A stretch of 64,000 nt of DNA, taken from a virus (Duplodnaviria > Caudoviricetes). This document shows, one piece after another, positions 1-63,169 of this stretch (position 1 is the stretch's first letter; each line of letters starts with the position of its first letter). The notes below the pieces were generated by a model. It was not told where the DNA came from. It was given only the letters and a program-made list of their open reading frames with translations, and ran no database searches. The position numbers and the translations under genes were made by a program. The stretch covers positions 15,880-79,879 of IMG/VR virus record IMGVR_UViG_3300021400_000949, one strand, 5' to 3'.

Positions 1-549
1 CATCTCCAAGATATTTTGGCAAATGGCGGTGAAGGTATGGTTATAACAAGAAAGGAATCTTTATATCAGCCGGGTAAACGCCCATCAAAGGATTGCCAAA
101 AGGTTAAAAAGGAACTCCAGGAAACAATTGATTGCTTCTTCACTGGCAAATTTATGGCGCCGAGCCGTATTTATACAGGAAAAGAATTGGAAAAATGGAC
201 ATATTGGTGTGACGATGTAACCGATGAACGCAAACTTGGTGAACATTATAAAGAATATGCAGAGGGCGCGCCTATAGTCCCTGTAACTAAGCCTTATTTC
301 TATAATTGGGCGGGAAGCCTTGAAATTGGTGTATTAAAGGACGGAGAAGTTTACCCTATTGGATATTTAAGTGGTTTAACTGAAGAAATAAAGGCTAATC
401 CAAAAGCATATGCAGGGAAAGCTATTGAAGTAACTGCAATGGAAATAATGAATACAGAAAACAAGGGTTTAAGGCATGCAAAAATGTTAAACTTTAGACC
501 TGACCTTACATATAAGGATTGCACTTGGGAGAAGTTAGGAATTGAATAA
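1..549 (+). CDS. ATP-dependent DNA ligase, C-terminal part (5' truncated by window)
   Basis: Frame open from base 1; EGMVI (motif IV), YQPGKR and KVKK (motif V), followed by an OB-fold-like tail; TAA stop. Confidence 0.75.
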   Translation, partial: HLQDILANGGEGMVITRKESLYQPGKRPSKDCQKVKKELQETIDCFFTGKFMAPSRIYTGKELEKWTYWCDDVTDERKLGEHYKEYAEGAPIVPVTKPYFYNWAGSLEIGVLKDGEVYPIGYLSGLTEEIKANPKAYAGKAIEVTAMEIMNTENKGLRHAKMLNFRPDLTYKDCTWEKLGIE

Positions 550-937
550 TACATCTATTGGTGAAGGTCACATCATAGAAATATTACAAAAAGAAAAAAT
601 CAAATTTGAACGAGAAAAAACCTATAAAGACTTACAACATGGTCTTTATAGGTATGATTTTTTTATCCCAGATTTAAATATTCTAATTGAATATGATGGA
701 GAGCAACACTTTAAATTTGTAAAAAAGTTTTATAAAAAGCGTTCTGAATTTTTAAAGGCACAAGAACATGATAGACGAAAAAATTCTTACGCCCTCGCGC
801 ATAAGATAAATCTTTATCGAATTCCTTATTGGGAATTAGAAAATATAAAAACCTTTCAAGATTTAATACAAAAACGTTTTTTAGTAAATACAAAATGGTG
901 GAATGATAATCTAAAAAATAAAGCGAACTTTAGATAA
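542..937 (+). CDS. DUF559/Vsr-like PD-(D/E)xK endonuclease
   Basis: YRYDFFIPDLNILIEYDGEQHF ... DRRKNSYA ... LYRIPY pattern. Confidence 0.7.
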   Translation: MNNTSIGEGHIIEILQKEKIKFEREKTYKDLQHGLYRYDFFIPDLNILIEYDGEQHFKFVKKFYKKRSEFLKAQEHDRRKNSYALAHKINLYRIPYWELENIKTFQDLIQKRFLVNTKWWNDNLKNKANFR

Positions 938-977
938 CCTCACTTTTATTCGTAAGATAGAAAGGAGGTAAGTACCG

Positions 978-1436
978 ATGAACCTAATAAGAGATATAGC
1001 TGCTATAATTGGTTGTATTTCTGCTTTCTTGGCACTGGTAGCTACTTTTTCTGAAAAGGGACAGGTCGCCATTAGAAAGATTTTTACAAAGCACACCTAG
1101 CAGATTATAGATACGGACAATAAGCAAAACGAAGAAATTAAAGAAATTAAGGATTTGTTAGTTAATTTTATTAATACTACAAAAGAATAGAATGATAAAA
1201 TTGACGCAAAGCTTGAATCAATAAGCGAAGGCTCTAAGGACATGCTTAGACAAAGAATTATGAGTTATTATTATAAAGGAAAACAATATCGCGAACTTTC
1301 AATTTATCAAAAAGAAGCGGTAGATGAACTTTATAAAGACTATAAAAAGTTAGGTGGAAATAATTATATTGATAAATACTACGCGCGAATGAGTGAATGG
1401 AATGTTCACTATGCGGAAGAATTAATGGATGATTAA
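978..1436 (+). CDS. Holin-like / lysis-associated membrane protein (2 in-frame TAG read as Gln)
   Basis: SD AAGGAGG; N-terminal hydrophobic helix IAAIIGCISAFLALVATF; coiled coil; C-terminal LRQRIMSYY..YKKLGGNNYI motif typical of Firmicutes phage holin-like proteins. Confidence 0.6.
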
Positions 1437-1445
1437 AATTTTTAT

Positions 1446-1479
1446 GAGAGAAGTCAGAATTTGATTTCTCTCTTTTTTT
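1446..1479 (+). terminator. Intrinsic terminator overlapping the next -35 box
   Basis: GAGAGAAGTCA-gaatt-TGATTTCTCTC followed by T7. Confidence 0.7.
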
Positions 1480-1489
1480 ATGGTATAAT
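1461..1489 (+). promoter_or_regulatory. Sigma70/A-type promoter
   Basis: TTGATT-17nt-TATAAT with extended TGn. Confidence 0.7.
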
Positions 1490-1521
1490 TAAAAAAAAGA
1501 AAATGGAGAATTATAAATATT

Positions 1522-2529
1522 ATGATTTATATAATATGTATATTATCTATTATATTAATATTTTTATTAATATAGAATAAAGTATAGAGAAATAATTTAA
1601 ATAAATAGAATTAGCTAATAGAAAATGAATATAAAAAGTTAAAACAAGAAAAAAAAGATTAGTTAACTAGCGAATTAAATGATTTAATTACTAAAAATAA
1701 AGAGCTACTAAATAAAGTTAATGAATTAGAATATTCTTGTAATTTAATTTAGCGAGATATAGATTAGAAAAAAGAATTTAATAATTCACTTTTAAAGATA
1801 AGGGAAGATGAGCTTAATACTTTAATGAAAGCTAAAGAAAATACGGCGCGTCTTCATGTTAAAGAGAATGTTGAAAAATATTATCAGCAACAAAAAGAAA
1901 AGATAAATAAAGCTATAACCGAAGCCGAAGAAGATTATTAGCTTAAAAAATAGGAATTGGAACAATAGCTTGGAGATTTACTTGTTTAGGTTTACAACTT
2001 TAAGGCGCAACGTGATAGTATAAATGAAGAATTAATGCGCCAACGTCAAATAGAGGAAGATAAGGCCTTTTATAAAATGAATATTAGTGATTTAGATAAA
2101 AAGGATATAGAAATACTTAAAAATGCAAGTTTACATTTATCTAAGCCTGATGCTGTTAATAAGATAATTTGGACTGGTTATTATCAAAAACCTCTTGCTG
2201 ATTTAAGAAAAAGATTACTCCCAAAAGGAGATATTAGCGGTGTATATAAGATAACTAGGTTAAAAACGGGAGAAATTTATATAGGACAAACCGTATCAAT
2301 AGATAAAAGATGGCAAGATCATGTAAAATCTGCTATTGGGGTAGGTACATTAGCATCAAGTCAACTGCATAGAGTAATGGCAGAAGATGGTCCTGAAAAT
2401 TTTACTTTTGAAATATTAGAAGAAACACCAAAAGAAAAGCTAAGAGAAAGAGAATCGTTTTATATAGATTTTTATGATAGTAAAAATTATGGGTTAAATA
2501 GTGTTAGAGGGGATAGAAATGACGATTAA
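1522..2529 (+). CDS. Membrane-anchored coiled-coil protein with C-terminal GIY-YIG nuclease (11 TAG read as Gln)
   Basis: With TAG=Gln the frame is open from MIYIICILSIILIFLLIQ (TM helix) through K/E/Q-rich coil to GVYKITRLKTGEIYIGQT...RW..H...LRERESFYI..YGLN. Confidence 0.8.
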
Positions 2530-3583
2530 TGATATATAGAGACAAATAATTACTACTGCCGCGCCCCATGTTTTGGTACCAAGTGCTGCCGCATCTGGAA
2601 AAAGCGAGACATTAGTAAATAGAATTAAATATTTATTAAGTTAGGGAATTGACCCATATAAAATAGTGGCTATTACTTTTACCAATAACGCTGCTTCGGT
2701 AATGTATGAAAGAATAGGGCGGCCGGATGGTCTGTTTATTGGAACAGTTCATTCTTATTGTAATTATCTTTTACGTAGTGGATCAATTGATACATCAAAA
2801 ATTTTAGATAACGAACAATTTGACGATTTGTTTCCTTTAATATAGGAAAACCCACAATGTATTAAAGAGGTTGATTATTTATTAGTAGATGAAGCACAGG
2901 ACTCAACAAAAGAATAGTTTGAATTCTTTGAATTAATAAAGCCAAAGAATTACATGTATTTTTATGATTTGCGGCAAAGCATTTATGGATTTGCAGGGGC
3001 TTATCCAGAGTATTTATTAAAAAAAGAAGAAGAATTAAATGTTACTGTTTATGAAATGAATCGAAATTATCGTAACTTTCCAACTATTTTAAAATTTGCA
3101 AAAAAGTTTTTGTGGCGGCTTGGGTATAAGTATGAAGATAATTCAATACCTATGCGGCAACCCGATTTTACCTCTCCTGTAATATAGATAGAAGTATTAC
3201 CTTCATAGTTGGTAGACTTAATAAAACGTTATGAACCTAATCAACAATGGAAAGATTGGTTTATTTTATGCCGTACAAATGCAGATGTAACAATTTTTCA
3301 GACTATATTAAACAAGGTTGAAATACCAAATGATACCTTTAAACAGGCTGATTTAACAAATTCTCAAATTTAGGGAAAGTTGAAAGAGAATACTATTAAA
3401 GTGTTGACAGTTCATTCAAGTAAGGGGTTAGAAAATAAAAAAGTTGCGGTCTATAATTTACTTGCATATAATGATGAAGAGGCGCGCTTATGCTACGTTG
3501 CGGCAACTAGAGCGATGGATTAGTTAATCTGGGCAAAAACTCCTTCAAAAAAACGCAAGAAAAAAGTAGAAAACTGGGAATAA
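2519..3583 (+). CDS. Compact UvrD/Rep-like SF1A helicase (8 TAG read as Gln)
   Basis: [72 protein letters not shown] in one frame; 354 aa. Confidence 0.9.
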
Positions 3584-3605
3584 GAAGGGTAAAACCTTCT
3601 TTTTT
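3583..3605 (+). terminator. Intrinsic terminator
   Basis: AGAAGG-gtaaaa-CCTTCT followed by T run. Confidence 0.6.
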
Positions 3606-3625
3606 CATTTTAGAGAATTTTAAAT

Positions 3626-3654
3626 TTGCAATTTTTATAAATTTTTAGTATAAT
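3626..3654 (+). promoter_or_regulatory. Sigma70/A-type promoter
   Basis: TTGCAA-17nt-TATAAT. Confidence 0.7.
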
Positions 3655-3685
3655 ATAATTAAGAATGGAAGAAAGGTGAAAAATA

Positions 3686-4207
3686 ATGAGTAATGAATAT
3701 AAAGATTGGGAAAATGACTTAAAGAACGCACAAGAGGGTACCCCGGATTATAATAGATGGCTTTGTATAGAATATCCTTTTCTTATACCTAGAAATCGTT
3801 TTACAGATAAAGAGATAGAAAATTATGACTATACTTGGACCGAATTAGATGCTATGCCTAGTGGTTGGAAAAAAACTTTTGGCATACAAATGTGTGAAGA
3901 GATAGCTAAAGTATTGAAAAAAGCTGATTATCTTTATGATTATAGAATAACTCAGATAAAAGAAAAATGGGGAGAGCTTTGTTGGTATGATAAAGGTGCT
4001 CCTAAAATAATCTATGATGAGCTTTGCAATATTATAGAGAAATATCAAGATTTATCACGAACAATTTGTTGTGTATGTGGCGCGCCCGCGGAATATGTTA
4101 CAATGAACTGGATCGGGTATTATTGCGATGAACATTCTAAAAACAATAGAAGCCGTGTGACTATAAAAAGATATGAGGAGATGTTAAATGAATTATACTA
4201 TAGATGA
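3686..4207 (+). CDS. Hypothetical phage protein with C-terminal Zn ribbon
   Basis: 173 aa, SD present, IKEKWG motif and CCVCG...YYCDEH. Confidence 0.65.
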   Translation: MSNEYKDWENDLKNAQEGTPDYNRWLCIEYPFLIPRNRFTDKEIENYDYTWTELDAMPSGWKKTFGIQMCEEIAKVLKKADYLYDYRITQIKEKWGELCWYDKGAPKIIYDELCNIIEKYQDLSRTICCVCGAPAEYVTMNWIGYYCDEHSKNNRSRVTIKRYEEMLNELYYR

Positions 4208-4271
4208 TATACTGGTCTAAAAATATGTATTATCCATTTAGTCCGGTTACTTATTAATAGAGGTGATAAAA

Positions 4272-5015
4272 ATGGGATTAAAAAATGAATTAGGAAATAC
4301 ATATGGATATTTAACAGTAATCGCTAGAGCAGAAAATACAAAAGAAGGTCGTGCTCAATGGTTATGTAAATGTAAATGTGGAAATGAAGTAGTAGTTTTA
4401 GGCAAGCATTTACGTTCTGGTAATACTAAATCTTGTGGGTGCTATTAGAAAGAACGAGCTATAGAATCAAATTTACAACGTGGCGGTAATTTAATTGGAA
4501 AAAGATTTGGTAGATTAGTTGTTTTATACGAAAATGGTTTTATAAATAAATCAGATGGAAGACGCGCAAGATTATGGCATTGTAAATGTGATTGTGGAAA
4601 TGAGTGTGATGTTTAGCACCAATATTTACAATGTGGTGATACTAACTCTTGTGGATGTATTAATTCAATAGGAAATATGACGATAAATCGTTTATTAAAC
4701 AAAGCGGGGATTAAGTATGAAAGTGAATATAGTTTTAAAGATTTTATCTGTATAACTTATCCATACTAGTTTGATTTTGCTTTATTTGATAAAGAAGATA
4801 ACTTATTAGGATTAATTGAATATCAAGGAGATATACATTTTACCTATAAAGAATATGGTTGGAACACAAAAGATAAATTTGAAGAACGAGTAAGAAGAGA
4901 TAAGGAAAAATTTGATTTTTGTTAGAAAAATAATATAAAATTATATTATATTACTTATAAAGATGATATTGAAGAAAAAATAAAGGAGATATTAAATGAA
5001 TTATACGGCAAATGA
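4272..5015 (+). CDS. Free-standing (homing-type) endonuclease: two Cys-rich repeats plus DUF559-like nuclease domain (4 TAG read as Gln)
   Basis: Repeats G..(Y/F)G.L.V...W.CKC.CGN...SCGC; SCGCY-TAG-KER; C-terminal FDFALF..LIEYQGDIHF; overlaps gyrB start; alternative GTG start at 4263. Confidence 0.75.
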
Positions 5016-6849
5016 TATAATTAGTTTAAGTGCAGGCCGCGCTTTTAGAGAAAAAATAGGTATGTATCTTTCTGCCGATAAACAAGAGGCAATTAACTTA
5101 GGTTTAAGAGAATTAATTGTAAATGTACAAGATGAATATGAAGTTTATAAGCCAGCCAATCCATTTTTAAAAATAACTCTTTCGACAAAGACAAGAGAAA
5201 TTATAGTTAGCGATAATATGAGGGGTATACCAGTAGGAATAAGAGATGATGGACAAAATTCTTTGACTGCCGCCTTCTTAATACCACACTCTGGAGGAAA
5301 ACATACGGAGGGGGTATATTCTAGCGCTGTTGGTATTAATGGAGAAGGAAATAAAATTGTTTGTCACACTGCAGAGTTTTTAATTGTATCTGTTAAACGT
5401 GATGGTAAAATTTATACTCAACGTTTTGAATCTAACGAAGAGGGAGCAACTCCAACGACAGAAGTTATGGAGGTTCCTTATGATGGTAAAGATACCGGTA
5501 CTACAATTGTTTATAAACCAGATCCTCGTGTTTATGGAGATATTTTTATTGATATTGAAAGTTTAAGGTCAATGTTAAAAGAAATGTCAATGTTTTCTAC
5601 TGGGTTACATATTTATTTATATATAGATGGGGAAAAAGAAGAATTTTTTTCAAAGAGTGGACTAATTGATGGTCTTTTAAAGGAAAATCGTCTTTCAAAG
5701 CCATTTTCTTATAGTTATGAAACAAATGATTGTAAAGTTGAATTGGCTCTCCAATGGGTAAGTAAAAAAGGACAAATTCGTGGTTATGCAAATAATTTAT
5801 ATATGCCAGATGGAGGAGCCTTTATTAGTGGTTTCAAATCTTCATTAACAAGAACCTTTAATTCTCTTGCTAAAACAAAATATGATGGAGATACAATTCG
5901 AGATGTGCTTGATGGATTCGTAAGCGTTAAAGTTAAAATGGGGCAATTTACAAATCAGCAGAAAACAGCTTTAGCAAACCCCGAAGCACGAACTGCAACT
6001 TCTACTGCGATAAGTGATTGTTTAAAAGAATTTGCTTTAAAAAGAAAAGATGATTTTAATCAAGTAGTTGAATTACTTAACAAAGTGGCTCGCGCCGAAG
6101 CTGCGGCAGAAAAAGCACGTCAGCAAGTAATGAGCGCCACAAAAGAAGTTGAGAAAAATCAAAAGAAAAAAGTTTTTGCATCTGATAAACTTAAGGATGC
6201 AGAATTTCTTGGACAAAATTCAACCTTACTTTTAGTTGAGGGTAATAGTGCGGCTTCATCAATAGCAATGGCAAGAGATGAGAAGAGTTATGGAATTTTA
6301 GCACTTAGAGGAAAAATGATTAATACCTTTTCTAATGATGATGAAAAGATTTATCAAAATGAAGAAATTAAATTATTCCTCAGTGCTATGAATATAATAC
6401 CGGGCAAATATAATGCTTCAAAATTGCGTTATGGAAAGATAGGTATATGTACCGATGCTGACGCAGATGGATATGCAATTGGTCTTTTGATAATGTGTGC
6501 TGTATATAAGTTTGCTCCCGAATTTATTGAAGAAGGTCGTCTTTATTGGTTAAGGTCTCCACTTTATATTGTTAAGAATAAAAAAGAAGAATCTTATTAC
6601 TTTACAGATGAAGAATTTGAAAAAGTTAGAAAAAATATAAAGGGAGAAGTTGAACGTGCAAAAGGACTCGGCGCGCTCTCGGCAGAACAAGCGCACAGGT
6701 CAATGTTTATGCCTGAATTCCAGCGTATGGACCAACTTTTGCCGGATAAAGACACAATTGATTTACTTTGGGACTTGATGGGTAAAGATAGTGAACCAAA
6801 ACGTGACTTTATATTTAAACACGTCGATTTCTCGGAGATAAGAGAATAA
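4996..6849 (+). CDS. gyrB: Type IIA topoisomerase subunit B (gyrase B-like)
   Basis: GHKL motifs (LRELIVN, DNMRGIP, GINGEG), Toprim VEGNSA, ALRGK, TDADADG, RAKGLG; no TAG. Confidence 0.93.
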   Translation: MNYTANDIISLSAGRAFREKIGMYLSADKQEAINLGLRELIVNVQDEYEVYKPANPFLKITLSTKTREIIVSDNMRGIPVGIRDDGQNSLTAAFLIPHSGGKHTEGVYSSAVGINGEGNKIVCHTAEFLIVSVKRDGKIYTQRFESNEEGATPTTEVMEVPYDGKDTGTTIVYKPDPRVYGDIFIDIESLRSMLKEMSMFSTGLHIYLYIDGEKEEFFSKSGLIDGLLKENRLSKPFSYSYETNDCKVELALQWVSKKGQIRGYANNLYMPDGGAFISGFKSSLTRTFNSLAKTKYDGDTIRDVLDGFVSVKVKMGQFTNQQKTALANPEARTATSTAISDCLKEFALKRKDDFNQVVELLNKVARAEAAAEKARQQVMSATKEVEKNQKKKVFASDKLKDAEFLGQNSTLLLVEGNSAASSIAMARDEKSYGILALRGKMINTFSNDDEKIYQNEEIKLFLSAMNIIPGKYNASKLRYGKIGICTDADADGYAIGLLIMCAVYKFAPEFIEEGRLYWLRSPLYIVKNKKEESYYFTDEEFEKVRKNIKGEVERAKGLGALSAEQAHRSMFMPEFQRMDQLLPDKDTIDLLWDLMGKDSEPKRDFIFKHVDFSEIRE

Positions 6850-6853
6850 AAAG

Positions 6854-6882
6854 TTGAACTTATTATAAAATTCTGATATAAT
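6854..6882 (+). promoter_or_regulatory. Sigma70/A-type promoter
   Basis: TTGAAC-17nt-TATAAT, extended TGn. Confidence 0.65.
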
Positions 6883-6921
6883 TATAATATAAAGATAGAA
6901 AGGAGAAAATAAAGGCAATAA

Positions 6922-9264
6922 ATGAGTAACTTAACACAAGTAATAAATGATAGCTTTATCCAATTTAGTGGTGCGGTTCTACAGAGCCGCGCCCTAGTCG
7001 ATGTGCGTGATTGTATTAAGCCTTCTGCTCGTCAAATTTTTTACTGTATGTATACAGATAAATTTGTCCATTCTAAGCCTTTTCAAAAGACATTAAAAGC
7101 TATTGGTTCAGCTTTTCGTCTTTACATTCATGGAGATTCATCTGCTGAAGGAGTAATTATGAGGTCTGCGCAACCATTTGCAATGCGTTATCCACTTGTG
7201 GAAGTTGAAGGTTCCTATGGAACTCTTTTGGCTTCTGGAAGTTGGGCGGCACCTCGTTATACAAGTTCAAGATTATCTCCTTTGGCTGAATATTTATTTG
7301 CAGATTTAAAAAAGGATACAATTAGTGAGTGGCGTGATAACTATGATAATACTGAACAGTACCCCGCCGTATTACCATCAAAGGGTTTTTATAACCTGGT
7401 AAATGGAACCTATGGAATAGGTGTTGGCGCGAGCTCTTCAATTCCGCAGTACAACTTAAAAGAGTTAAATAAAGCATTAGAAGTTTTATTGTTAAATCCT
7501 GATGCTGAATTTGATGATATTTATGTAGCTCCTGATTTTGCGACCGGCGCAACCATTATAAATGGTGAGCAAGTTAAAGAGTCACATAAAAATGGTACGG
7601 GTTTTGCTTGTAAGATTAGATCCTCTGTTGAGTGGGATGCAAAGGATAGATGCTTTATCGTAACTGAAATCCCCTATATGCTTTATACAGAAACTATTTG
7701 TAGAGAGCTTGAAGAGATAATTAATAGTGAAAATAATTTTGGAATTGATAGATTTAATGATTTAACTGGTAAAACACCGTTAATTAAAATCTATCTACAG
7801 AAAAACGCTAATCCAGATAAAGTACTTAAGCAGTTATTTAGTAAAACTTCTCTTGAATCTTATTATGGAATTAACTTCACAATGTTGGACAATGGGCGCT
7901 TTCCAAGAGTGTTTACATGGAAAGAAATGCTACAAGCACACATTGACCATGAAAAGATCGTATATAGACGTGGATTTGAATATGACCTTAAAAAGATAGA
8001 GGATAGGCTGCACATTATAGAAGGTCTGCTAAAGGCTTATGATGTAATTGATGAAGTTGTTCAGACAATAAAACGCGCGGCTTCATCTGTTGAAGCAAAT
8101 AAGGCATTAAGAGAGCTTTTAAGTATTGATGATGTACAGGCAAAAGCCATTCTTGCTTTAAAGTTATCTAGTCTTAGTAAAATAGATATAAATAAATTAG
8201 TAAATGAGCAGAATGAACTTATAGGGCGCGCTTCGGAAATTCATAAGATTTTAGAAGATAAGGATTTGTTTAATGAACAGATAATACGTGGATGGCGCGA
8301 AGTTGCAGAAAAATTTGGTGACGAACGCCGCACAAAAATTTTAAATCTTGGTGGTGAAGAAGAAGAGCCAACAGAGATAAAAAAACTTCAAATATCTTTA
8401 ACAAATCTAGGAAATCTTTATGCGGTTGAATCTTCAACTCTTTATACACAAAAGAGAGGTGGAGTTGGTACAAAGGCTAAGCTCGCGCAGAATGAGTATG
8501 TCGTAAATAGTATTAGTGTTAATTCAAATGACAAGATCTTATTCTTTATGACAACCGGTAATTATTACCATTGTAAAGCATCTGATATAACACTTGAGAC
8601 AAAAACTCCGGTCTGTACTTTAATAGGATTAAAAGACTGGGAAGCAACGCGCGCAATAATAGGATTAAATAAAGAAAATACTAAGGAATATGTTATCTTT
8701 ATAACACGAAAAGGAATTATCAAAAAATCTCTTCTTTCAGAATATAACACAAATCGTGCAATCGGAATGCGAGCTTTAGCACTTGATGATGGTGATGAAT
8801 TAGTTGATGTGTTATTTGCTAATGAAGAAAAAATAGGTATAATGACCGAAGATGGTAACTTCTTAATAACAGAAACAAAAGATATTCGTCCAATAGGACG
8901 TGTTGCACGTGGAATAAAAGTAATAAAACTTAACGAAGGAGACGTTGTAGCGGCTGCGCGCCTTATATATCCGAATGCAAAAGAAATTATTTCTGTAAGT
9001 GGAAATGGATATATAAAATCAACTGATATAAAAGAATTTTCAATACAAGGTAAAAATACAAAAGGAAGTCGCATTCAAAAACTTTATGATAGTGATTGGA
9101 TGTCAGATTTCTTACCGGTAGATGACTTAAAAGAAATACTGGTAAGCGCCACTAAATCTTGTATAAAATTCAAAAAGGATGAAATACCTATTGTGTCAAA
9201 AGGCGCATACGGTACACGCTCTATAAAAATTTCAGAAAAAGATAATATAATTGCTTTAAATTAA
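6922..9264 (+). CDS. gyrA: Type IIA topoisomerase subunit A (gyrase A-like, with beta-pinwheel CTD)
   Basis: RALVDVRDCIKP, HGDSS, catalytic AAPRYT, GyrA-box-like QKRGGVG, six blade repeats (RAIGMRAL, RVARGIKVI, KNTKGSRI, KGAYGTRSI). Confidence 0.93.
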   Translation: MSNLTQVINDSFIQFSGAVLQSRALVDVRDCIKPSARQIFYCMYTDKFVHSKPFQKTLKAIGSAFRLYIHGDSSAEGVIMRSAQPFAMRYPLVEVEGSYGTLLASGSWAAPRYTSSRLSPLAEYLFADLKKDTISEWRDNYDNTEQYPAVLPSKGFYNLVNGTYGIGVGASSSIPQYNLKELNKALEVLLLNPDAEFDDIYVAPDFATGATIINGEQVKESHKNGTGFACKIRSSVEWDAKDRCFIVTEIPYMLYTETICRELEEIINSENNFGIDRFNDLTGKTPLIKIYLQKNANPDKVLKQLFSKTSLESYYGINFTMLDNGRFPRVFTWKEMLQAHIDHEKIVYRRGFEYDLKKIEDRLHIIEGLLKAYDVIDEVVQTIKRAASSVEANKALRELLSIDDVQAKAILALKLSSLSKIDINKLVNEQNELIGRASEIHKILEDKDLFNEQIIRGWREVAEKFGDERRTKILNLGGEEEEPTEIKKLQISLTNLGNLYAVESSTLYTQKRGGVGTKAKLAQNEYVVNSISVNSNDKILFFMTTGNYYHCKASDITLETKTPVCTLIGLKDWEATRAIIGLNKENTKEYVIFITRKGIIKKSLLSEYNTNRAIGMRALALDDGDELVDVLFANEEKIGIMTEDGNFLITETKDIRPIGRVARGIKVIKLNEGDVVAAARLIYPNAKEIISVSGNGYIKSTDIKEFSIQGKNTKGSRIQKLYDSDWMSDFLPVDDLKEILVSATKSCIKFKKDEIPIVSKGAYGTRSIKISEKDNIIALN

Positions 9265-9284
9265 AATTTTTAAGAAGTTAAATT

Positions 9285-9313
9285 TTGACTTTTACTTAAA
9301 AATTTTATATAAT
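9285..9313 (+). promoter_or_regulatory. Sigma70/A-type promoter
   Basis: TTGACT-17nt-TATAAT. Confidence 0.75.
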
Positions 9314-9410
9314 ATATATAGAAGTTAAGGGAAAACACCTTAAAGTGCCATTAACCGAAAAAATAAGATAATGGCAAGAAAAAAAATTAAATTTATAGGA
9401 GAACAAAATT

Positions 9411-9659: not shown

Positions 9660-9671
9660 TTTTAAGTTTAA

Positions 9672-9706: not shown

Positions 9707-9740
9707 AAAAGAACCAAGATATAGAAAGAGAGGTATTTAA

Positions 9741-10664: not shown

Positions 10665-10676
10665 GGAGGTTAACAT

Positions 10677-53766: not shown

Positions 53767-53768
53767 AA

Positions 53769-54248
53769 TTATACCTCCTTATTCTGTCTGTTTAATTCAA
53801 TCATTCTAACAATATTTAAGCCAGTTGCTTCCTTTAAAAGTTCACACTTTTCAAGATTAATTATCTCATTTTCAACAGCATAATCGACCATATTTTTCTT
53901 CTGTTCTATTGAAAGATTAGCTAACTTTTCCTTAAACTCATGAAGCGGCAACACAGTTAAATATCTCTTCATTTCTGCGTCACTAAGTACAATTATATTC
54001 TCTGGCTCTGTAGCATCTTCAGGTTCAAGACCTAACTCCTTTTTAACTTCCATGTCTTCAATATAAAGCATACCAGTTCTAAACATATATTCTGTACCCG
54101 GATCGAACATTATATTCTCTAAAAGTTCCTTATCAATAGCAACTTTTTGCCCTTTCTTTGTCCAATCCTTCCTAAAACCGTACTCTGGTAAACTGATACC
54201 AACAGTTCCATTAACTGTACTTACCACATAAACTTTCTTATTATCCAT
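53769..54248 (-). CDS. Hypothetical protein downstream of the capsid gene
   Basis: 159 aa, SD AAAGGAG, no TAG. Confidence 0.6.
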   Translation of the reverse strand: MDNKKVYVVSTVNGTVGISLPEYGFRKDWTKKGQKVAIDKELLENIMFDPGTEYMFRTGMLYIEDMEVKKELGLEPEDATEPENIIVLSDAEMKRYLTVLPLHEFKEKLANLSIEQKKNMVDYAVENEIINLEKCELLKEATGLNIVRMIELNRQNKEV

Positions 54249-54285
54249 TATAAATTTCTCCTTTTAACTCATTTTTTTTAGTTTT

Positions 54286-54322
54286 AAAAAAATAGAGGAA
54301 GGAAGAAAAACCTTCCTTCCTC
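54286..54322 (-). terminator. Intrinsic terminator after the major capsid gene
   Basis: GAGGAAGGAAG-aaaaac-CTTCCTTCCTC with T run on minus strand. Confidence 0.75.
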
Positions 54323-54350
54323 ACAATTAATCAATCATACACCGTAAGGA

Positions 54351-55400
54351 TTAACCATTATATGTCTGAGTGATACCAGTATTCTGATAAATACCCCAGT
54401 TATAATGTGTCAATATAGCGCATCCCATCTTCTTATAAGCATGAATTTCCATAGAATTATCTCTATTTGTGAAGTCATGAATCTGTGTAGCGCCTTCAAG
54501 AACAACCTTAACAACCTTCTCCTTTCCAGCAGGCAGAACATATGCAAGCTGAGGATCGATCTCTGTTGCTGTATTGGTCTCATCAACGAAAGACTGTGGA
54601 ATCTGAACAATAGGTGTTCCACGGAAGATATTGATGTATCCAGTATTATGTATAGCATCAATGTCCTGAGGAGCATAAACTCCAACTGCAGGATAGGATG
54701 ATCCATATGTTCCAACTGGAACTATAGCATCAGGTCCCATAGCTGCTACGAATTCAGGCGGAGCAAATATTACTGCGCTTGATCCATATGCTCTAGCGAT
54801 ATTAACAAGCTTAAGCATATCAGCAGGAACGAATGTATTCTTTGAAATGAGGTTTGTAGCAGGTCTAGCTGTAGCAGTAACAGCAGCCTTAAGTGCCTTC
54901 TGAACTTCACCAAATACAGCATCTGTAAGTCCTTCTGTAATTATATCCATAATCTCTGCCATGTCTTCAGCGCCATCAAGGAATCTCTCGAAATCAATTG
55001 TAGCTGCGCCGCCTACTGCATGAGCAGAAACTTCAAATGTATCCTTATCAAGTCTGAATGTCTCATAAACTCCGGAAAGTCCAACCTGTGTAAGGAACTT
55101 CTTAGCTCTGAGTTTACCAGCAGTCTTTCTAAACATAGCCTTCTCGCCCTGTCCAACAACCTGAACGTCTGCGAACATTCCAAGAGCGTTTATAACCTTA
55201 TTAGGAACGACTTCATCAGCTGTAGTAATTATAATATCATAAATATCATAACGATTTCTCATGAATTCGTTAACGCTAGAAGCAAGGTTCTTCATCTCTT
55301 CACGAAGAGCAACATTAACATTTTCATTGGAATAGTTAGCAGGAGCAGTTCCTCTAGCAGCATGAAGAGCTAATTCTTTAATCTCTTTAATTGTAGCCAT
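54351..55400 (-). CDS. Major capsid protein
   Basis: 349 aa, strongest codon bias, follows protease/scaffold and decoration genes, no TAG. Confidence 0.85.
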   Translation of the reverse strand: MATIKEIKELALHAARGTAPANYSNENVNVALREEMKNLASSVNEFMRNRYDIYDIIITTADEVVPNKVINALGMFADVQVVGQGEKAMFRKTAGKLRAKKFLTQVGLSGVYETFRLDKDTFEVSAHAVGGAATIDFERFLDGAEDMAEIMDIITEGLTDAVFGEVQKALKAAVTATARPATNLISKNTFVPADMLKLVNIARAYGSSAVIFAPPEFVAAMGPDAIVPVGTYGSSYPAVGVYAPQDIDAIHNTGYINIFRGTPIVQIPQSFVDETNTATEIDPQLAYVLPAGKEKVVKVVLEGATQIHDFTNRDNSMEIHAYKKMGCAILTHYNWGIYQNTGITQTYNG

Positions 55401-55425
55401 TTTTAATTAACCTCCTTCGAAAATG

Positions 55426-55971
55426 TTAGGCAACCAGTACTCTAAACTGAATTGCATACTGACCATCAGGCATTGTGAAAGGCTTAACAACTTCAAGTGT
55501 AAGTCCTGCCTGTGGCTTTGTTGCGGTTACCATTATTGAACCGTCTGTTGAATATGTTCCATAAACCTTTGTGGTCTTAACTGCGGCGATAGCAGCCTTG
55601 AAAGCTGTTTCATTTGCATACTCAGAAGTATCATAGCTTACGCAGTTTGTTGTAAAAAGATCACCAACAGCGAGATAACCCATTCTTGGATAAAAATCAT
55701 TTACTGTAAGCTTGAAATTCTTAAGACCAATTCTCTCATCATAAATGTGCTCTGCACTATAGTTGATTGCTATAGGAAGTGTTTCGTTAGCAACAGGAAG
55801 CTTAACTATTCCATTTACCTTATCTACTGCAAGAAGCATTCCATTCTCTGCAGGGATAGAAGCAAATCCTACTGGATCAAGCTTGCACTGAGCTTCAACA
55901 CGGCCATCTCTACGAAAAGCCGCATTATTAAGTTCTAACTGACCAAAACCGTCAATTACTAATCTAGCCAT
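55426..55971 (-). CDS. Capsid decoration / stabilising protein
   Basis: AENGMLL.VD..G motif, between scaffold and capsid, no TAG. Confidence 0.65.
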   Translation of the reverse strand: MARLVIDGFGQLELNNAAFRRDGRVEAQCKLDPVGFASIPAENGMLLAVDKVNGIVKLPVANETLPIAINYSAEHIYDERIGLKNFKLTVNDFYPRMGYLAVGDLFTTNCVSYDTSEYANETAFKAAIAAVKTTKVYGTYSTDGSIMVTATKPQAGLTLEVVKPFTMPDGQYAIQFRVLVA

Positions 55972-55989
55972 TGTAGCATATCCTCCAAA

Positions 55990-57360
55990 TTATTTTTTAT
56001 ACTTATCTAAAATACTCTCTATGCCATCTTTCAGGACGTTGTCCTTTGGAACGAACATAGGCTTATTGGTGAAAACTTCAGAATGATTTTTCTTCAATTC
56101 ATAAGCAAGTTCCTTATCAAGTTCTGTTGCATTATACTGCTCAAGTTTTTCCTCTGTATAAGATTCGAGAACTTCAGATGGTAAAAGTTCAGAATATGAA
56201 TCAAGAACCTGTTCTTTTTCTTGTTTTTCAATTTCTTTCTTATATGCAGTCAAAGAATTAACTTCTTCTGTAAGAGCGTCAATCTTTTCTTGTGCAATAG
56301 AAAAATTCTGCGCGTTTTCATCTCTTTCTGTAGTTAAAGTAGAAATATTGTTATTCAGCTCTTCAATTTTTGCGCTAAACTCTTCATTTTCTGCTTTTAA
56401 TGTATCTATATTTTCAAATTTTTCATTTATATTAGCATATGTGCCATTGTTATATTCCTTCAGCATCTGAAGTGCTTCATATTCTTCTTTTGGCATATCA
56501 ATTATGTAGCACTCTTTGCGGTCGGTTATTGTTATAACATTAGCCTCATCATCTTTTGTGTAATAAACACGCTCATAACTTCCTGTTTCGTAATTGAAAG
56601 CTAAAGCATACTCTTCATAAATATCCTGAATTCCATAAGTAATTGCCCACTCATTTTCTTCATTATATTTATCATTTAAAAGCATCCATAAAGCATCAAA
56701 TTTTTCTCTATCAGAAAGTCTAAAATTCAAACTAGCCATGTTTGACTTTCCCCCTTCTTCACGGAATTCTACTGTATATTTTTCAATTTGTTCAACCATT
56801 TCTTTTAATTTGTTATATAAAGTAAAGAAAGCCGCACCTTCAAAACAAGGTTCCGTTTCATCACCAAGTATTTGTAATCCCAAGAAACAGCCGTCTTCAA
56901 ATTTAAAATACTTTTGTCCATCTATATATTCCCACTAACCTTTTATAGAAGGCGCATAAAGTTCCATTGACTAAGATTTATTACTAATCTATGCGGCCTC
57001 TTTATAGATTGCGGTAAAGATATAAACGTCGCAACAAGCATATACTCTTTGTATTCCATCTTCATCTAAATGAGTTTCCCATGCGAAATTTGGATTTTCT
57101 GGAACTATTCCATAAATTCTACCCAAGTCGCGCTCTGTACCATGATCGGTATAGTCTTGAGATTCCTCATCGTAAATGCCCTTAACTGGAGTATATGGCA
57201 AAGTACTAATTAATTTTTCAGCAAATTCGTCTGAAATATAGCTACCATTTCTATTACCATATTTATAAAAAATGCGGCATCTACCTTTTGATAACACAGG
57301 AGAAAGCTTTTCTAATTCACCGTAAAGGTTTACGGAGAACTGTGAATAATTACTATTCAT
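55990..57360 (-). CDS. Prohead protease-scaffold fusion (3 TAG read as Gln)
   Basis: N-terminal protease-like TLPYTPVKG..DHG..GIVP..KS-TAG-SMEL..LGD..EPCFEGA; acidic coiled-coil C-terminus. Confidence 0.8.
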
Positions 57361-58837
57361 TTACGCCTCCTTGATTATCTAATGACACTTCATTAGCTAT
57401 TGTCTTTTCAGACTTTTCATCTGAACTCTTTTCCGGCGCCCCAACACTGTTTGCACTTTGTGTATAAGCCGATTGCAAAGGTTTGAGTTTTTCGCCTAAC
57501 TTCATTACATCATTTTCCAAGTCTTTTAAATTGCCCAAATCCCTTTGAGTAACGCCCAGGGCCAAAGCCGGCAGAATAAAACTGTAACCGCTCTGTGCCA
57601 GTTTAAAAGAATCAGTAATAAATGTTGATTCGTTATAATATGTTATTGGTAAAAATTCATACTTAAAATTAATATTTGTATTACTAAATACTAAATTTAA
57701 TAAGTTAGAAAGGAACATAGAATACTTATTTGCTAAATGCATCATAAAAGCAACATCATTTTTAATTGATATTTCAACTGATAAATTACCAGTTGCGGCA
57801 AATATCTAATTACTTACGCCGCCTTCATTGTAAATATTCTGAACCATCTTTTCAAGATTGTTAGACACTGCTTCAGATGTAGTCTTAGAAACTATTGCAT
57901 CAACGTCGGCATAAGTAGTTAAAACAGAAACATTCTTATTTTGTTTTAACATACCTACAGTTCCTTTATGAATAACCTCGGCTTCTTCTGGTTCAAACAG
58001 AAGGCCGCCATCCTAAAGGTGTGGTATTTTTTGAACAATAATTTTTCTAATTTCATCTAAATCACGCTCGCGCTCTGTATCTACTGTATCATCGTACTGA
58101 ATTGTTGCAGGAATTACGCTTAAAAACATTGGGAGTCCTTCAAAAAGATTGAAACATACTGCCAATTCAATAGGAAGTAAAACCCATGAACTCTCTACTT
58201 TTCCGGCGGTCCATTTACGATAATATTGTCTTATAATCTTTGGATAAGCTTCAAGCGTTGCACGCTTTATATCCTAATCCATAAAACTATCAAAATAAGC
58301 AACATTAAATTCAACAAGATCATTACCTTTTAAATCTTTAACAATTGAACGACAATACTGCGCGGGCAAGTCCATCAGTGTAAAACTTTCTTTGCCAAAA
58401 GTTTGCACAATACCATAATAATAACCATCAATTAACACTCTCAAAGAACAATTAGTAAATAAGGTCTATATAGAAGAATTCTCAATAAAATCTAATGCTG
58501 CGTTATAACGTTTTTGGATATAAGTATCAGAGAGATTTTTATTAAAAGTTGGATTAGGAATTAATACACCCATAAACTTTAATAAAGTAGCATAATATAT
58601 TAATATTCTCTTATAAAAGCCGTCTTTGTAAAAAAACGTCCTTGAAAGTTTTTGCTATTCTGAGAGGGAGCCAGATTGAATGATTCTTTCAACATCTTCA
58701 AGTGTGTAAGTACGATGAATAAAACGTTCATAATATCTTGAAACATTTCTTGCATCGTTCGCATTACTGGCAACCATCTCATCTAATGATTTTTTAAAGG
58801 AGGCCAAATCAAACTTAAAGTTTTTCTCTTGTTCCAT
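57353..58837 (-). CDS. Portal protein (TAG read as Gln), 494 aa
   Basis: Position between terminase and protease; single frame with TAG=Gln; size. Confidence 0.7.
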
Positions 58838-58839
58838 TA

Positions 58840-60642
58840 TTAATATCCTCCTGTGAAGAACACCAATTTGCGCGATTCACCAAACAAACTCTCGCGGCGC
58901 TTTTCTTTTTTATAATACTCTTCTTCTAACTCTTTAATGCGCCATAAACCGTATTCAAAAGCAGAAAATTTATCTTTTGGAAAACGAGAATTAATCTGTT
59001 CCAAAGTTATATCCAAGCCTACGCCAGTGCGCTTAAGTCGCAAATTAGCCATTTCTTCAAAAAGTTTGGTAGTCATTTCATGTGGCATTAAACGTTCAAC
59101 ACGTTCTTTCGCGGTCATTTTCTAACCAATTTTTGTTGCCATTAAAGCATTCTTAGCTTCTTGCTCCTTTATAAGAAAACGCACGGCACCGCTATTCATT
59201 TTTGAATAAGCATTGCCATGAATCTTTGAGTTTAAAGGGCCATTAGCTTTTAAAGAATAAAGAATTAATTCACAATCGCGAGGTTGAGTTTTTTTATACT
59301 CATCATTATTAAAAAATCCATATGGTGGATAAGCAACGCCATTGTCATCAATCTGTTCTCTTATCATTTCATCAGCCAAACCTACTCCTAAACCATTACA
59401 GTCAATTACAACTTCTTTTGGTTTAAAATCTTTAATTAGTCGTTTTATATCAATAGCCTATTGATAAAATGTTTTTGTTTCAGACTAACGTCCAAGAACA
59501 AAAAGATTAACTAAAGTAGCATAATATTTAGCTTTATTGATGTTAACTCTAAAAACACAACAAACGGTTTGGTCATTAATTCGACCAACGTCCACTGATA
59601 ATAAGTAAAACTAGTTGGCGCCTTCTCTATAAATTGCGTGTCTTTCAGGGTTCTTTATTTTTCTATATTTTTGTAACTTATCAAAATCAAACCAAGAGTC
59701 ATCACTGCCGCCACTCCATATTGAAAGATACTCTCGAGAGAAAGTTTCTTCCTAGTAAGTAGGAGACATTTTTAACTCTTGAATAAATTGTTTATCCAAA
59801 AGGCCATGCATTACTGGAATTCGATAATCACATCCCCAAATAAATGCTTGCTTTGGATTTATAATTGACATTTCTAATACGTCTATAAGTCGTCCATATG
59901 CGTATGAAGACTTGACGCCCGCCGAAGTCATATATAACTGTTGTTGGTTAGGTTCATTAGGATTAACTTCACCTCTTGCAGTACGACGTGATACGTTCAT
60001 CAAAGGAAGAACAACTGCGTTAAGTATATCACCATCATGATCGCGCACCTCATCGATAAGTCCACCGTTACGGCGGCCGCCACGTTCAGAGTCGAGCGCG
60101 CCGACAACGTCAAATATTGAACCATTTCGAAAAGTTAGCGTAACATAGTCCTTCCCAAAATTACCATCCCCAACGATCTCCTTTTTTAAAAAAGGCAACT
60201 TATCCCATATTTCATAAATTTTATCTTTTGCTATCTTTGCTGACTGGTTCTTCCCTGGCGCGCATATAAAAAGTTTTGCGCCAGGACGAAACATACATTC
60301 AAGATAAAGAGCTAAAATTGAAATAAAAGTTTTTGAAAAGGCACGGCATGCAGTACAATAATGATACCTAAATCGCATGCAAGCGCGCAAGAATATTCGC
60401 TAAAAAAAGAAAAGCGAAAAATTAGAATCACTAGGAGTAATTAAATCAATAAAAAGGTCAGGATAAGCAGTAAAAAAATTTGCATATTTACTAAATAATT
60501 CCTCGTTTTTAATCAAATACTCTTCTGTTAAAATCGCACCTTTCTCTAATTCAATTCCTTCTTTATAAAAGTGCTAAACCTAACTATTTAAATCATTTAA
60601 CTAATTGCGAAGTACTTCAATAACTTTTTTACTCATCTTCAT
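58840..60642 (-). CDS. terL: Terminase large subunit (TAG read as Gln)
   Basis: F-TAG-RIFLR (Q motif), CRAFSKT Walker A, GLIDEV Walker B, YMTSAG, RuvC-fold SVDVGR and VIDCNGLG; alternative start 60636. Confidence 0.88.
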
Positions 60643-61624
60643 TACCTCGCTCTAATACAACCGGATTAAATTCTTCGTCCTTTATCAATTCCTCATATCC
60701 AGCGTTATCATATTCATCCAAGTCATATTCCTTATTAGTATCATAATAATCTTCCAGTTCGCGCGCACTCTGTAATGACGCAATTCTTCGGTCTATTTCT
60801 TCTGATATACCAGTCTCATTAGTATAAAGACGTTGTGTAAAGTTCTAAATATTCTTCATTGTCTCATCAACAATATCACGTGTTACATCATCATAAAACT
60901 TATTGCGCCAACCTCTCTTTTCAAGCCACCTAAACAGCTCTCCAACCGAATCAAAATCAGTAGCATTCTTTACATTTTTCGGAGTAAACTCTGCCGTCTT
61001 AACCAGCTTATCATAGGAAGAAAGCATTTTATCAAAGTCATCGCCCTCTCTAATGCGTGAATCAATCTCATAAGAAATCTTACAAATCTTTTGAGCTTGG
61101 TCTACCTATAGGGCGCCGTTAACATTTTGCGTCGCAAGCAAGCCACTATATAACCCTTCAAGATAAGTTAAGGCTTCATCGTCATAATTACTGCCCCACT
61201 TTTCGCGCAATTTACGATACTTTTCTTCTCTAATTTCCGGCAATTCATCCTCGATAAGGCCAACCTCTTTTAAAGACTAAAATTGCTTATAATAGGCACC
61301 CCAACCAAGTCCCGCATACTCTTCTCCCTAGAATACAGTGGCGTAGGCACCGAATACATTATCTTCTCCATTTGTCTCTTTTAACCTTTCCCATTCTCTT
61401 GGAATAAACGGAAGGTCTGCCCACTGGCAAACCTTATCTACCGCTTCCCAATTAAACTCCTTCAACCGCAAATAATCAGTAACACAATCGTTACAAATTG
61501 GTAGCCAGCCATCATAAAAAAGTGAATGAGTTTTTGAGTAATGATCAGGTCCAAAGGTGCGGCCGCATCTACCGCAAGTGCGCGCCGCAAAAGACTTCTG
61601 TTTTGGCAACTTAGGCTCAAGCAT
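60629..61624 (-). CDS. Zn-finger protein, putative terminase small subunit (TAG read as Gln)
   Basis: CGRC..CNDC N-terminus; immediately upstream of terL; single frame. Confidence 0.55.
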
Positions 61625-61847
61625 GATGCTTTCCTGGCTGGCTAAGTAACTTTAAAATCTCTTTCTAACGCTTTGGGCGCAACTCAATAAATCTATCTAA
61701 AACCTGTTCCAAAACCTAATCAAAGGGCAAAGGTTTATCATCGCGCATCAAGTCCGCGCCAAATAATTTTGCTAACCCTATAAATTCAATAGGTTCTAGC
61801 TATCCAATCATCTTAACAAACTTCTCAAAGTTTTTTTCTTCTCTCAC
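61617..61847 (-). CDS. Small hypothetical protein (GTG start, 3 TAG read as Gln)
   Basis: Fills the gap with overlaps at both ends; open with TAG=Gln. Confidence 0.5.
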
Positions 61848-63169
61848 TTAATCTTCCCCTCCCTTATCTTCTTATCACATCTCTTACATCTATTCGAAAA
61901 TCCATCACTAGATCTCTACCTATGTACAAAATTCTCTTCATCAATAAGTAAAGTTTCGCCACAACATTTACATTGTTTAAAGTTTTCTGGATAGGGCAAA
62001 TTTTCGACCACCTTAGCATGGAATGTGGCGGCCGCGTTAATCTAAGGAATAATCTTCTATCTAAAAATAGTACTGATATAGTTAGCCGTATACGACTTCC
62101 CATATTCCTCATTTACAAGGCGCGCGATGTCCTAATTGCGCATTTTTCCTATCTTTAACCTTAAAATTCTGCCCTAAACATCATTTAAATTAGCACGCGC
62201 CGTATACCACTCTAACGTCCTTAAAAAGTCTTGTAAGTCGCTATATACGTCTTGGTCGAGTGATTCGTCCTTTAATTCGTCCAGCATTAAAAAAGCCGAA
62301 TAAACGTGTTCCAACTCTCTAAAGTCAAACACCATTAATGGTTCTTTTTCTCTTAAGTTTTTTTGTACCCAATAATCTTTTAGGGCTTCGCTTAATTCAT
62401 CTTGCGAAAAATCTTGCGGCAATGGGAAGCGTCCATTAGGAAAAAGTTTTGTCTTTTTGTTGACGAGTCCGCAAGGCGCGCATTTTGCCGCATCACTTAA
62501 ACTTAAAGATAAGGCGGGCGCCGCCATTACTTCTTCCTTAAGCGTAATGGGTGTCTTAATGGAGTCGCGCAACGTATATTGTTCGCGTCTTAACTCAACG
62601 AGTAGATGCCGCATCTTTAAATACTTAAATTGGCTTAGCTATTCGGCGCGCTCGCGCAAATGCATACGTTGTTCTTCGTTAAACTTATTTAAAAGTGCGG
62701 CGCGCGGCTCCTATGTGCGTCTCCCGTGTTCCAAATCATAAAAACTTGTTAAAAGGTCTAACTCATCAATTTGTGCCCATAACTGTTCAAACCTATCTAA
62801 TAAATGGGGCGGCGCGGTGTCGCGCATTTCTTTTCTTGAAAAAACGACTTTTGGGGTTTTATAGGGGGCTCCCTGTAAAAGTTGGGCCTCGTTAAATGTG
62901 GGCTGTTCGATGAGGGCATCGAGAGATTCGTCCTCGTGCGTGTCCCACGTTTTATTTTTTGACTCAAGCTAAATGTATTTTTCTTGCTTTACGTTAAGGC
63001 CCGATTGGGGATCTTTGCCCCAGAGGACGTAGTTGGCCATTAACTCTAATTCGTCTTCGGTAGGTGGTCGTAACTAAAACTCTTTTTGTTCCAAATATCT
63101 ATTCAAAAATTCAGACCTTTCACTGTTTGTGTTAAGTGAAAAGTCGAGTCGTAATCTATTTTTATTCAT
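61844..63169 (-). CDS. Putative late transcription regulator: sigma-region-4-like HTH plus C-terminal Zn finger (9 TAG read as Gln)
   Basis: First gene of the late module; ILRLKIGKMRN*DIARLVNEEYGKSYTANYISTIFR* and CKCC..RCKRC. Confidence 0.6.

Follow-up and report, generated by a model that had tools for sequence, protein, structure and literature searches.

Why is an AT-rich phage genome densely sown with the G/C-only words GCGCG and CGCGC? The question is raised by a stretch of 64,000 nucleotides from a virus of the class Caudoviricetes, referred to here as the window, which comprises bases 15880 to 79879 of the 79,879-bp IMG/VR contig IMGVR_UViG_3300021400_000949 (67% complete according to CheckV). 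A first-pass annotation of the sequence had noted a roughly ten-fold enrichment of both words and proposed DNA-level selection for a signal, for which several candidates were named. In this work, GCGCG and CGCGC are found to be the commonest products of a genome-wide cooperative bias in G/C placement, and no discrete signal. The bias is clade-wide and strand-symmetric, acts at the level of the DNA, and generates short CpG/GpC-rich runs of approximately 7 to 10 bp at random places, mostly through synonymous positions.

Over-representation of G/C-only words

The counts behind the proposal were largely reproduced. Between positions 260 and 62830 there are 128 distinct CGCG loci (149 occurrences), where about 125 had been reported; 109 of them extend to GCGCG or CGCGC (reported, about 105), and the reported 19 non-extended loci were counted as such, against 31.7 expected. 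The GC content is 32.8 to 32.9% and not 29% as assumed, and the chance level of CGCG is therefore about 45 instead of 30, and that of each 5-mer about 7.5. In the entire window, GCGCG occurs 77 times and CGCGC 95 times, which is 10 to 12 times the Bernoulli expectation and matches the ten-fold excess claimed, whereas GCGCGC is found 42 times (32-fold) and GGCGCGCC 6 times. One 5-mer locus per approximately 450 bp was measured between 4996 and 27021 in the replication module, close to the estimate of one per 400 bp. The five codon contexts that had been quoted as uses of rare codons are all in frame 0, namely, at 6670 in gyrB, 16279 and 16315 in recJ, 22464 in nrdD, and 25581 in an open reading frame (ORF) of 216 aa.

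Disappearance of the enrichment under a codon- and dipeptide-preserving shuffle had been named as the outcome that would speak against the claim. Synonymous codons were permuted within each gene, which keeps the protein sequence, and hence the dipeptides, as well as the codon usage of each gene; in this and all other codon-aware tests, gene calls were made with TAG read as glutamine. The excess stayed. Observed-to-shuffled ratios were 2.5 for GCGC (z 18), 2.1 for CGCG, 4.4 for GCGCG, 5.1 for CGCGC, and 7.1 for GCGCGC, and G/C-only runs of at least 7 nt were 3.4-fold in excess (z approximately 18). The window contains 118 such runs, with about 18 expected. That the 5-mer itself constitutes the signal, as had further been claimed, did not hold, since an order-3 Markov null model reduces the excess of the 5-mers to 1.2- to 1.4-fold (95 observed vs 67.7 expected for CGCGC, and 77 vs 65.8 for GCGCG). 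GCGCGC is at expectation, with 42 copies vs 48.8 predicted from its own 5-mers.

A cooperative rule of G/C placement

At fourfold-degenerate third positions, the fraction of G/C is 0.11 in the absence of a G/C neighbour, approximately 0.3 when two G/C flank the position on either side, and 0.8 to 1.0 with at least three to four contiguous G/C on both sides. Silent sites in the two extreme contexts differ approximately 29-fold in their odds of being G/C. The choice of base avoids GG and CC: GCN followed by C takes G, GGN followed by G takes C, and CGN followed by G takes C. The ratio of observed to shuffled run counts is 0.88 for runs of 4 nt and, rising smoothly by about 1.45-fold with each extra base, reaches 6.7 for runs of 10 nt; compared with the shuffle, runs of 3 to 4 nt are depleted and A/T runs are unaffected. 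The excess correlation between G/C positions fades out at about 9 nt. The G/C content at third positions (GC3) of adjacent codons is barely coupled across an intervening A/T (0.262 vs 0.225), and a clustering of rare codons was therefore excluded.

The word spectrum depends on the number of GG/CC steps. Each G/C-only 4-mer that contains both CpG and GpC is enriched 2.2- to 4.4-fold, and the ratios for GGCC, CCGG, GGGG, CCCC, CCCG, and CGGG are 0.6 to 1.2. Over all G/C-only words, enrichment relative to the shuffle drops with the number of GG/CC steps (Spearman coefficients of -0.95, -0.81, and -0.82 for k = 4, 5, and 6, respectively), and the median ratio of 6-mers falls from 6.4 at zero steps to 0.75 at four. 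The non-palindromic words GGCGGC, CGCCGC, and GCGCCG are enriched on a par with palindromic ones. Palindromic 6-, 8-, and 10-mers show no excess when the runs are modelled as Markov chains of orders 1 to 3 (order 1, 107 vs 113 and 18 vs 20), and selection for palindromes was rejected because they occur at the Markov expectation.

Action on the DNA and random placement

On the coding strand, each word exceeds the shuffle to the same degree as its reverse complement, and the runs use all three reading frames with GGC, GCG, CGC, and GCC codons, which are minor in this phage. Of the proposed DNA-level selection, the action at the DNA level is borne out by the three frames, the strand symmetry, the rare codons, and the survival of the shuffle, but the candidate signals are not.

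Gaps between runs are exponential (Poisson-spaced; coefficient of variation, 1.09), and the position within genes is uniform. Most 10-kb bins contain about 19 runs, the density is equal in early and late genes, and it is 1.92/kb in TAG-free vs 1.88/kb in TAG-containing genes. There is no polarity: the three genome arms carry the 5-mers GCGCG and CGCGC 9/12, 52/55, and 31/44 times, respectively, and the counts of other words are similarly balanced. Neighbouring runs are not hairpin partners (43 complementary pairs vs 42.1 expected), and their pairing in hairpins or mRNA structures was rejected because pairs occur at chance level.

Only 147 of the 703 runs that the proteins would permit are realised (21%). 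Dipeptides of Gly, Ala, Arg, and Pro are present at 0.98 times and tripeptides at 1.20 times the expectation (z 2.7). In a codon alignment of DnaE, run positions are not conserved among relatives, and some runs arise by amino acid replacement in variable stretches. At the site encoding M-A-R-G (Table 1), several members of the clade form a run through different codons or residues, and L003 and L010 carry GCT CGT GGT and no run. The site encoding G-A-R belongs to a variable stretch (E-S-G, E-D-G, N-I-L, or D-N-G in relatives), and the run of this phage involves amino acid replacement. Two sets of runs in Table 1 are exceptions; of these, the runs in the suppressor tRNA lie within its arms and are therefore a matter of RNA structure, outside the phenomenon in coding sequence.

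Distribution among relatives

Searches with DnaE retrieved 30 viral and 52 metagenomic loci as well as 3 in metagenome-assembled genomes (MAGs), mostly from rumen or gut, the closest sharing 85% DnaE identity. A megablast search against GenBank phages gave no match for this phage. The trait is confined to one clade of the DnaE tree and is present in all its members; the outgroups (the L008 group, L023, and L021/L025) show it weakly. Under the shuffle, the run excess is 3.4-fold in this phage, 2.35-fold in G002 and G004, 1.8-fold in G003, and 1.2-fold in the outgroup genome G009, and within each affected genome it is spread genome-wide. Preferences for G/C words correlate at 0.83 to 0.94 among members of the clade despite saturated synonymous divergence. 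The outgroup formed by G009 and the L008 group has a bias of its own, with GCGG/CCGC about 3-fold above base composition, CGCG at 0.6-fold, and GGCC at 0.4-fold.

A human-gut subclade (L007, L027, L037, L069, and G012) is nested in the affected clade. Its member G012, a complete genome of 109,575 bp with terminal repeats, contains 13 copies of GCGC, 3 of CGCG, and 17 of GGCC in 110 kb, and L007 and L027 have 0 to 1 of these words in 24 kb, in keeping with the remark in the first-pass annotation that phages usually avoid such cores. Clustering of G/C nevertheless persists in G012 at 1.84-fold via CGGC, GCCG, GCGG, and GGCGGCG-type words, with a run density of 0.38/kb vs 1.85/kb in this phage. 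The force is therefore not specific to GCGC, and the runs are dispensable. The purge of GCGC, CGCG, and GGCC is a textbook footprint of restriction avoidance, gained after a shift in host or habitat from the mostly rumen-derived relatives. GATC is avoided as well, without an encoded Dam-type methylase: this contig has 82 copies vs 190 expected from the shuffle (0.43-fold, z -10), and ratios of 0 to 0.13 were obtained for relatives (9 vs 214 expected in G002, 0 vs 161 in G012, and low values also in G004 and G009). The depletion of palindromes that marks restriction avoidance thus concerns only other words, namely, GATC in this phage and GCGC, CGCG, and GGCC in L007, L027, and G012.

Two phages served as controls, along with a Clostridia MAG described below. 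In T4, the odds ratio at fourfold-degenerate sites is 1.0 and the run excess 1.00-fold. AR9, a phage with uracil-containing DNA (U-DNA), has an odds ratio of 1.5, and its 3 runs of at least 7 nt vs 1.0 expected are too few to interpret.

Substitution dynamics in close pairs

Exchanges between G/C (S) and A/T (W) were analyzed in close pairs within the affected clade at fourfold-degenerate sites with identical flanks; the analysis is unpolarised and assumes equilibrium, and the clade contains no trio of close genomes for polarising. Differences between S and W were seen at 95 of 631 sites between G/C neighbours vs 188 of 1858 and 102 of 1707 otherwise. The W-to-S exchange per W site was 0.14 between G/C neighbours vs 0.064 and 0.036, and the S-to-W exchange per S site was 0.16 vs 0.24 and 0.18. 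Transitions and transversions numbered 70:25 in G/C contexts vs 239:51 elsewhere. From these rates and ratios it follows that the gain of G/C is promoted, and not merely its loss prevented, and that the process is not restricted to transitions.

Possible causes of the bias

The bias acts at synonymous sites, is graded with the flanks, is strand-symmetric, and is randomly placed, which are the features of a neighbour-dependent compositional bias. There is about an even chance that its cause is a context-dependent bias in the origin or fixation of substitutions during replication, repair, or recombination/conversion, with no site-specific function. The gain of G/C beside G/C would be favoured and its loss there mildly disfavoured. 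The agent may be the DnaE replisome of this phage clade together with its repair genes, or host repair acting on phage DNA. The runs would then be a lineage signature without site-specific function, on which restriction avoidance is superimposed, directed at GATC here and at GCGC, CGCG, and GGCC in one subclade.

Several observations weigh against this replication or repair bias. An odds shift of approximately 29-fold is large if mutational context alone is to account for it. CGGCGC/GCGCCG are enriched 8.5-fold vs 2.0-fold for CGCGGC/GCCGCG, which have an identical 3-mer content, and such preferences beyond nearest-neighbour steps imply an agent that reads sequence. Together with the large effect, they keep selection or a sequence-reading agent alive. 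Transversions are as frequent as or more frequent than usual in G/C contexts, which fits a fixation bias, whether through selection or through biased conversion, no less than a mutational bias. In addition, no enzyme or gene was tied to the trait: four affected genomes are separated from G009 by an ATP-dependent ligase, a mini-UvrD helicase, a dUTPase with an N-terminal extension, and a 371-aa unknown protein, and none of these genes is diagnostic. Gyrase was rejected as a correlate since affected as well as unaffected clades possess gyrA.

An undescribed context-reading system of the clade that makes or maintains the runs, either a repair/conversion pathway or a G/C "clamp" protein, is unlikely. 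As a pathway, it would be a short-patch repair or conversion that resolves mismatches to G/C when they are flanked by G/C, for which the clade-restricted ligase and mini-UvrD (compared with G009) and the adjacent GIY-YIG nuclease, also found in the outgroup, are candidates. As a protein, it would be abundant and require contiguous G/C clamps on very AT-rich DNA. In this case, the bias would be more than a passive signature and would constitute a functional trait.

Weak positive selection for G/C stretches of about one helical turn, which would clamp the duplex or offer docking sites of low specificity, is unlikely, though the likeliest of the rival readings. The docking factor would be an abundant DNA-binding protein of phage or host, such as a nucleoid, packaging, gyrase, or annealing protein, and near-complete runs would be completed wherever the protein sequence allows. 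Positions bridging two G/C stretches are 80 to 100% G/C, the W-to-S exchange is raised in G/C contexts with transversions included, word preferences exceed simple stacking rules, the correlation length of about 9 nt has the size of a footprint, some runs are formed through amino acid replacement, and there is the slight tripeptide excess. Against this reading, the spacing is irregular, positions are not conserved, run counts rise smoothly and multiplicatively with no preferred length, there is no palindromy, only about a fifth of the encodable runs are used, the complete relative G012 has the far lower run density given above, and gyrase occurs on both sides of the clade boundary. The lack of a single word, of a palindrome excess, of positional conservation, and of regular spacing, as well as a complete relative, G012, with 5 times fewer runs, also leaves unsupported the discrete binding sites suggested in the first-pass annotation. 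It is an established idea that short-patch repair can raise the number of methylase sites above expectation, as with CCWGG in E. coli. A corresponding drive, in which a GCGC/CGCG cytosine methyltransferase and a Vsr-like T:G endonuclease convert near-cognate sites, is improbable for this phage, even though the classical sites GCGC and CGCG form part of the top words. With the contig only 67% complete, the enzymes would have to be encoded by the host or by the unsequenced third of the genome. No C5 (PF00145), N4/N6 (PF01555), or D12 (PF02086) methyltransferase was detected above the family cut-off in the contig and 14 relatives, a census of 15 genomes in which three relatives are 90 to 100% complete by CheckV, including members at 93% and 100%, and Vsr (PF03852) was not found in this contig. 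Moreover, many non-palindromic words show the same enrichment, there is no surplus of palindromes, the share of transitions is not raised in G/C contexts, and clustering outlasts the loss of GCGC and CGCG in one subclade, so that the suggested target of a phage methyltransferase was not supported either. The DUF559 match at 542-937 was rejected as a Vsr-like enzyme, being a homing-endonuclease-like domain that comes in several copies and is shared by unaffected relatives; in relatives it occurs in 1 to 4 copies per genome, often fused to longer ORFs, and resembles free-standing homing endonucleases. Genomic uracil or hydroxymethyluracil with unrepaired deamination was likewise rejected: the protein of 310 aa proved to be a trimeric dUTPase of the ordinary kind, extended at its N terminus; the "thyX" ORF has no sequence match; and the U-DNA phage AR9 shows little clustering.

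Phages commonly share the k-mer usage of their hosts, and the phage might mirror an oligonucleotide signature of its host, the bias then not being phage-specific; this is as improbable as the methylase drive. Shine-Dalgarno-like 4-mers precede 53 of 75 genes and internal GGAG, GAGG, and GGAGG are depleted, which suggests a Firmicutes-like host with strong Shine-Dalgarno use. By base composition, the rumen Clostridia MAG G017 (33% GC) has a 4- to 7-fold excess of G/C runs and a 2- to 4.7-fold excess of GCGC, and its GATC is depleted to 0.1- to 0.6-fold over six sampled contigs (L131 and L134 to L138; 0.27-fold vs shuffle). This MAG is truly bacterial, as it possesses PolC, UvrA, UvrC, and SipL, and neither a C5 methyltransferase nor Vsr (PF03852) was found in it. 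Under the shuffle, however, its run excess is 1.21-fold (z 2.0) vs 3.4-fold in the phage, nearly all of it being explained by protein sequence and codon usage, and its preferred words differ (top words CCGGCG/CGCCGG, GCGCGC 3.8-fold, Spearman coefficient of 0.45 with the phage). The trait also follows the phage DnaE phylogeny, and G017 is a chance match that provides no evidence for being the host. Identification of a host via MAGs was rejected, because the bins of the relatives disagree and G017 is similar by raw composition but not under the shuffle. Contigs of relatives were binned into the unrelated MAGs "Methanobrevibacter sp." (L129) and "Bacteroidales bacterium" (L130), where mis-binning by composition or coverage is probable. 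A coding artefact, through clusters of rare GC-rich codons causing translational pausing or through Gly/Ala/Arg/Pro runs, is not supported and very unlikely. The runs necessarily use minor codons, but their excess survives a shuffle that fixes protein and codon usage, reverse complements are equally enriched, all frames are used, adjacent GC3 values are nearly uncoupled across A/T, and Gly/Ala/Arg/Pro dipeptides are not in excess. Least credible, and equally not supported, is an oriented signal of the Chi or uptake type that protects or marks DNA. In AT-rich Firmicutes, the known Chi sites are short words rich in G and C (AGCGG in B. subtilis, GCGCGTG in L. lactis), but no single word stands out here and there is no orientation skew on any of the three genome arms or on the coding strand, contrary to what the first-pass annotation had considered.

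Relation to known systems and significance

The mechanism type favoured here, in which a repair bias and not a function inflates words genome-wide, is known from Dcm/Vsr and the CCWGG sites of E. coli. Unlike very-short-patch repair, which acts on T:G in one methylase site, is restricted to transitions, and concerns one word, the phage shows transversions and many words, and no Vsr or C5 methyltransferase was found. Neighbour-dependent substitution and GC-biased gene conversion resemble the phage bias in being strand-symmetric, context-dependent W-to-S fixation biases that act at synonymous sites without site-specific function. However, described neighbour effects are small and gene conversion produces tracts of hundreds of base pairs, whereas the phage effect is approximately 29-fold, extends over 7 to 10 bp, and belongs to one phage clade.

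Highly iterated palindromes and their methyltransferases are the subject of Elhai (2015; PMC4390886). Like HIP1 (GCGATCGC) and other highly iterated palindromes of cyanobacteria, the phage words form a hugely over-represented, G/C-rich family that is scattered in coding sequence in all frames by way of synonymous codons and does not keep its positions; its cause is a matter of debate (drive vs function). HIP1 is one 8-bp palindrome associated with orphan methyltransferases, whereas in the phage no one word stands out, palindromes are not over-represented, the 15 genomes yielded no methyltransferase, and the effect is a graded function of the neighbouring G/C. The analogy with HIP1 drawn in the first-pass annotation is therefore apt for the pervasiveness inside coding sequence but fails for the single palindromic word and, within the 15 genomes, for the cognate methyltransferase. 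A limited literature search retrieved no published description of this G/C clustering, the nearest published analogue being the work on HIP1 and methyltransferases (PMC4390886).

The bias is a strong, clean, and clade-specific compositional signature that could aid the binning and classification of TAG-recoded rumen and gut phages, and its contrast with the GCGC-purged human-gut subclade illustrates restriction avoidance acting on top of clustering. If it arises from replication or repair, it would offer a natural readout of the error and repair spectrum of a phage DnaE replisome, and it would caution motif hunters that a ten-fold excess of a word need not mean a recognition site. If it is selected, it would point to a DNA-level requirement of very AT-rich phage genomes that has so far not been recognised.

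Genetic code and gene content

TAG is a sense codon in this phage. Under the standard code, the virion genes are fragmented and 72% of the contig is coding; this share rises to 97% when TAG is read through. The ORFs of 2216, 2440, and 1086 aa contain 45, 62, and 18 in-frame TAGs, respectively. TAG-bearing genes span positions 978 to 63169 of the window and comprise the late genes on the minus strand plus a few early ones; the core replication genes have none. The suppressor tRNA (Table 1) has an unusual T-arm and was missed by ARAGORN. A further TAG-recoded contig, G015:C147, bears the same G/C-run signature.

Table 1. Positions of G/C runs and genes in the window (window coordinates unless stated otherwise)
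Feature	Position	Strand	Remarks
Field of short G/C-only runs	1..64000 and across the whole 79.9-kb contig	.	Survives synonymous shuffle
Run GGGCGCGCC	264..272		Contains GGCGCGCC; first site in the range 260-62830
13-nt run GGCGCGCCCGCGG	4079..4091		In the 173-aa ORF
10-nt run CGGCGCGCCG	13658..13667		In dnaB
Run GGCGCGCGG	17307..17315		In the DnaE polymerase gene; codons M-A-R-G
Run GGCGCGCG	20215..20222		In the DnaE gene; encodes G-A-R
11-nt run GCGGCGCGCCG	24767..24777		In the NrdG-like radical-SAM gene
12-nt run GCGGCGCGCGGC	62697..62708		Near the right end of the range 260-62830
Exception: runs in the suppressor tRNA	25801-25814 and 25823-25830		T-arm/acceptor stem of the CUA suppressor tRNA
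Exception: terminator-like hairpin GGGCGGC-tctgt-GCCGCCCC	30985..31004		Followed by a T-run; read from the sequence
ATP-dependent DNA ligase	contig 15325-16428		Ends at window position 549
131-aa protein	542-937	+	Weak DUF559 match (Vsr-fold-like)
GIY-YIG nuclease and overlapping mini-UvrD helicase	1522-3583	+	335 aa with 11 in-frame TAGs; helicase of 360 aa
173-aa ORF	3686-4207
HNH homing-endonuclease-like ORF	4263-5015	+	4 TAGs; extends into the beginning of gyrB
Replication module	5-27 kb	+	GyrB, GyrA, AAA_24 ATPase, DnaB, primase, RecJ, DnaE-type Pol III alpha, NrdD/NrdG, dUTPase
NrdG-like radical-SAM gene	24488-24973
216-aa ORF	25029-25679	+	Member of phrog_6721, a family without assigned function
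Suppressor tRNA, anticodon CUA	25758-25828	+	Rfam tRNA, 30.4 bits (gathering score 29, E 1e-4)
Virion genes of siphovirus type (late genes)	28.8-63.2 kb	-	Sipho_tail; ORFs of 2216 and 2440 aa; open only with TAG as a sense codon

The label "thyX" that the 216-aa ORF had received was not upheld, as the ORF has no Pfam match at an E value of at most 0.01 and no sequence match in the PDB.

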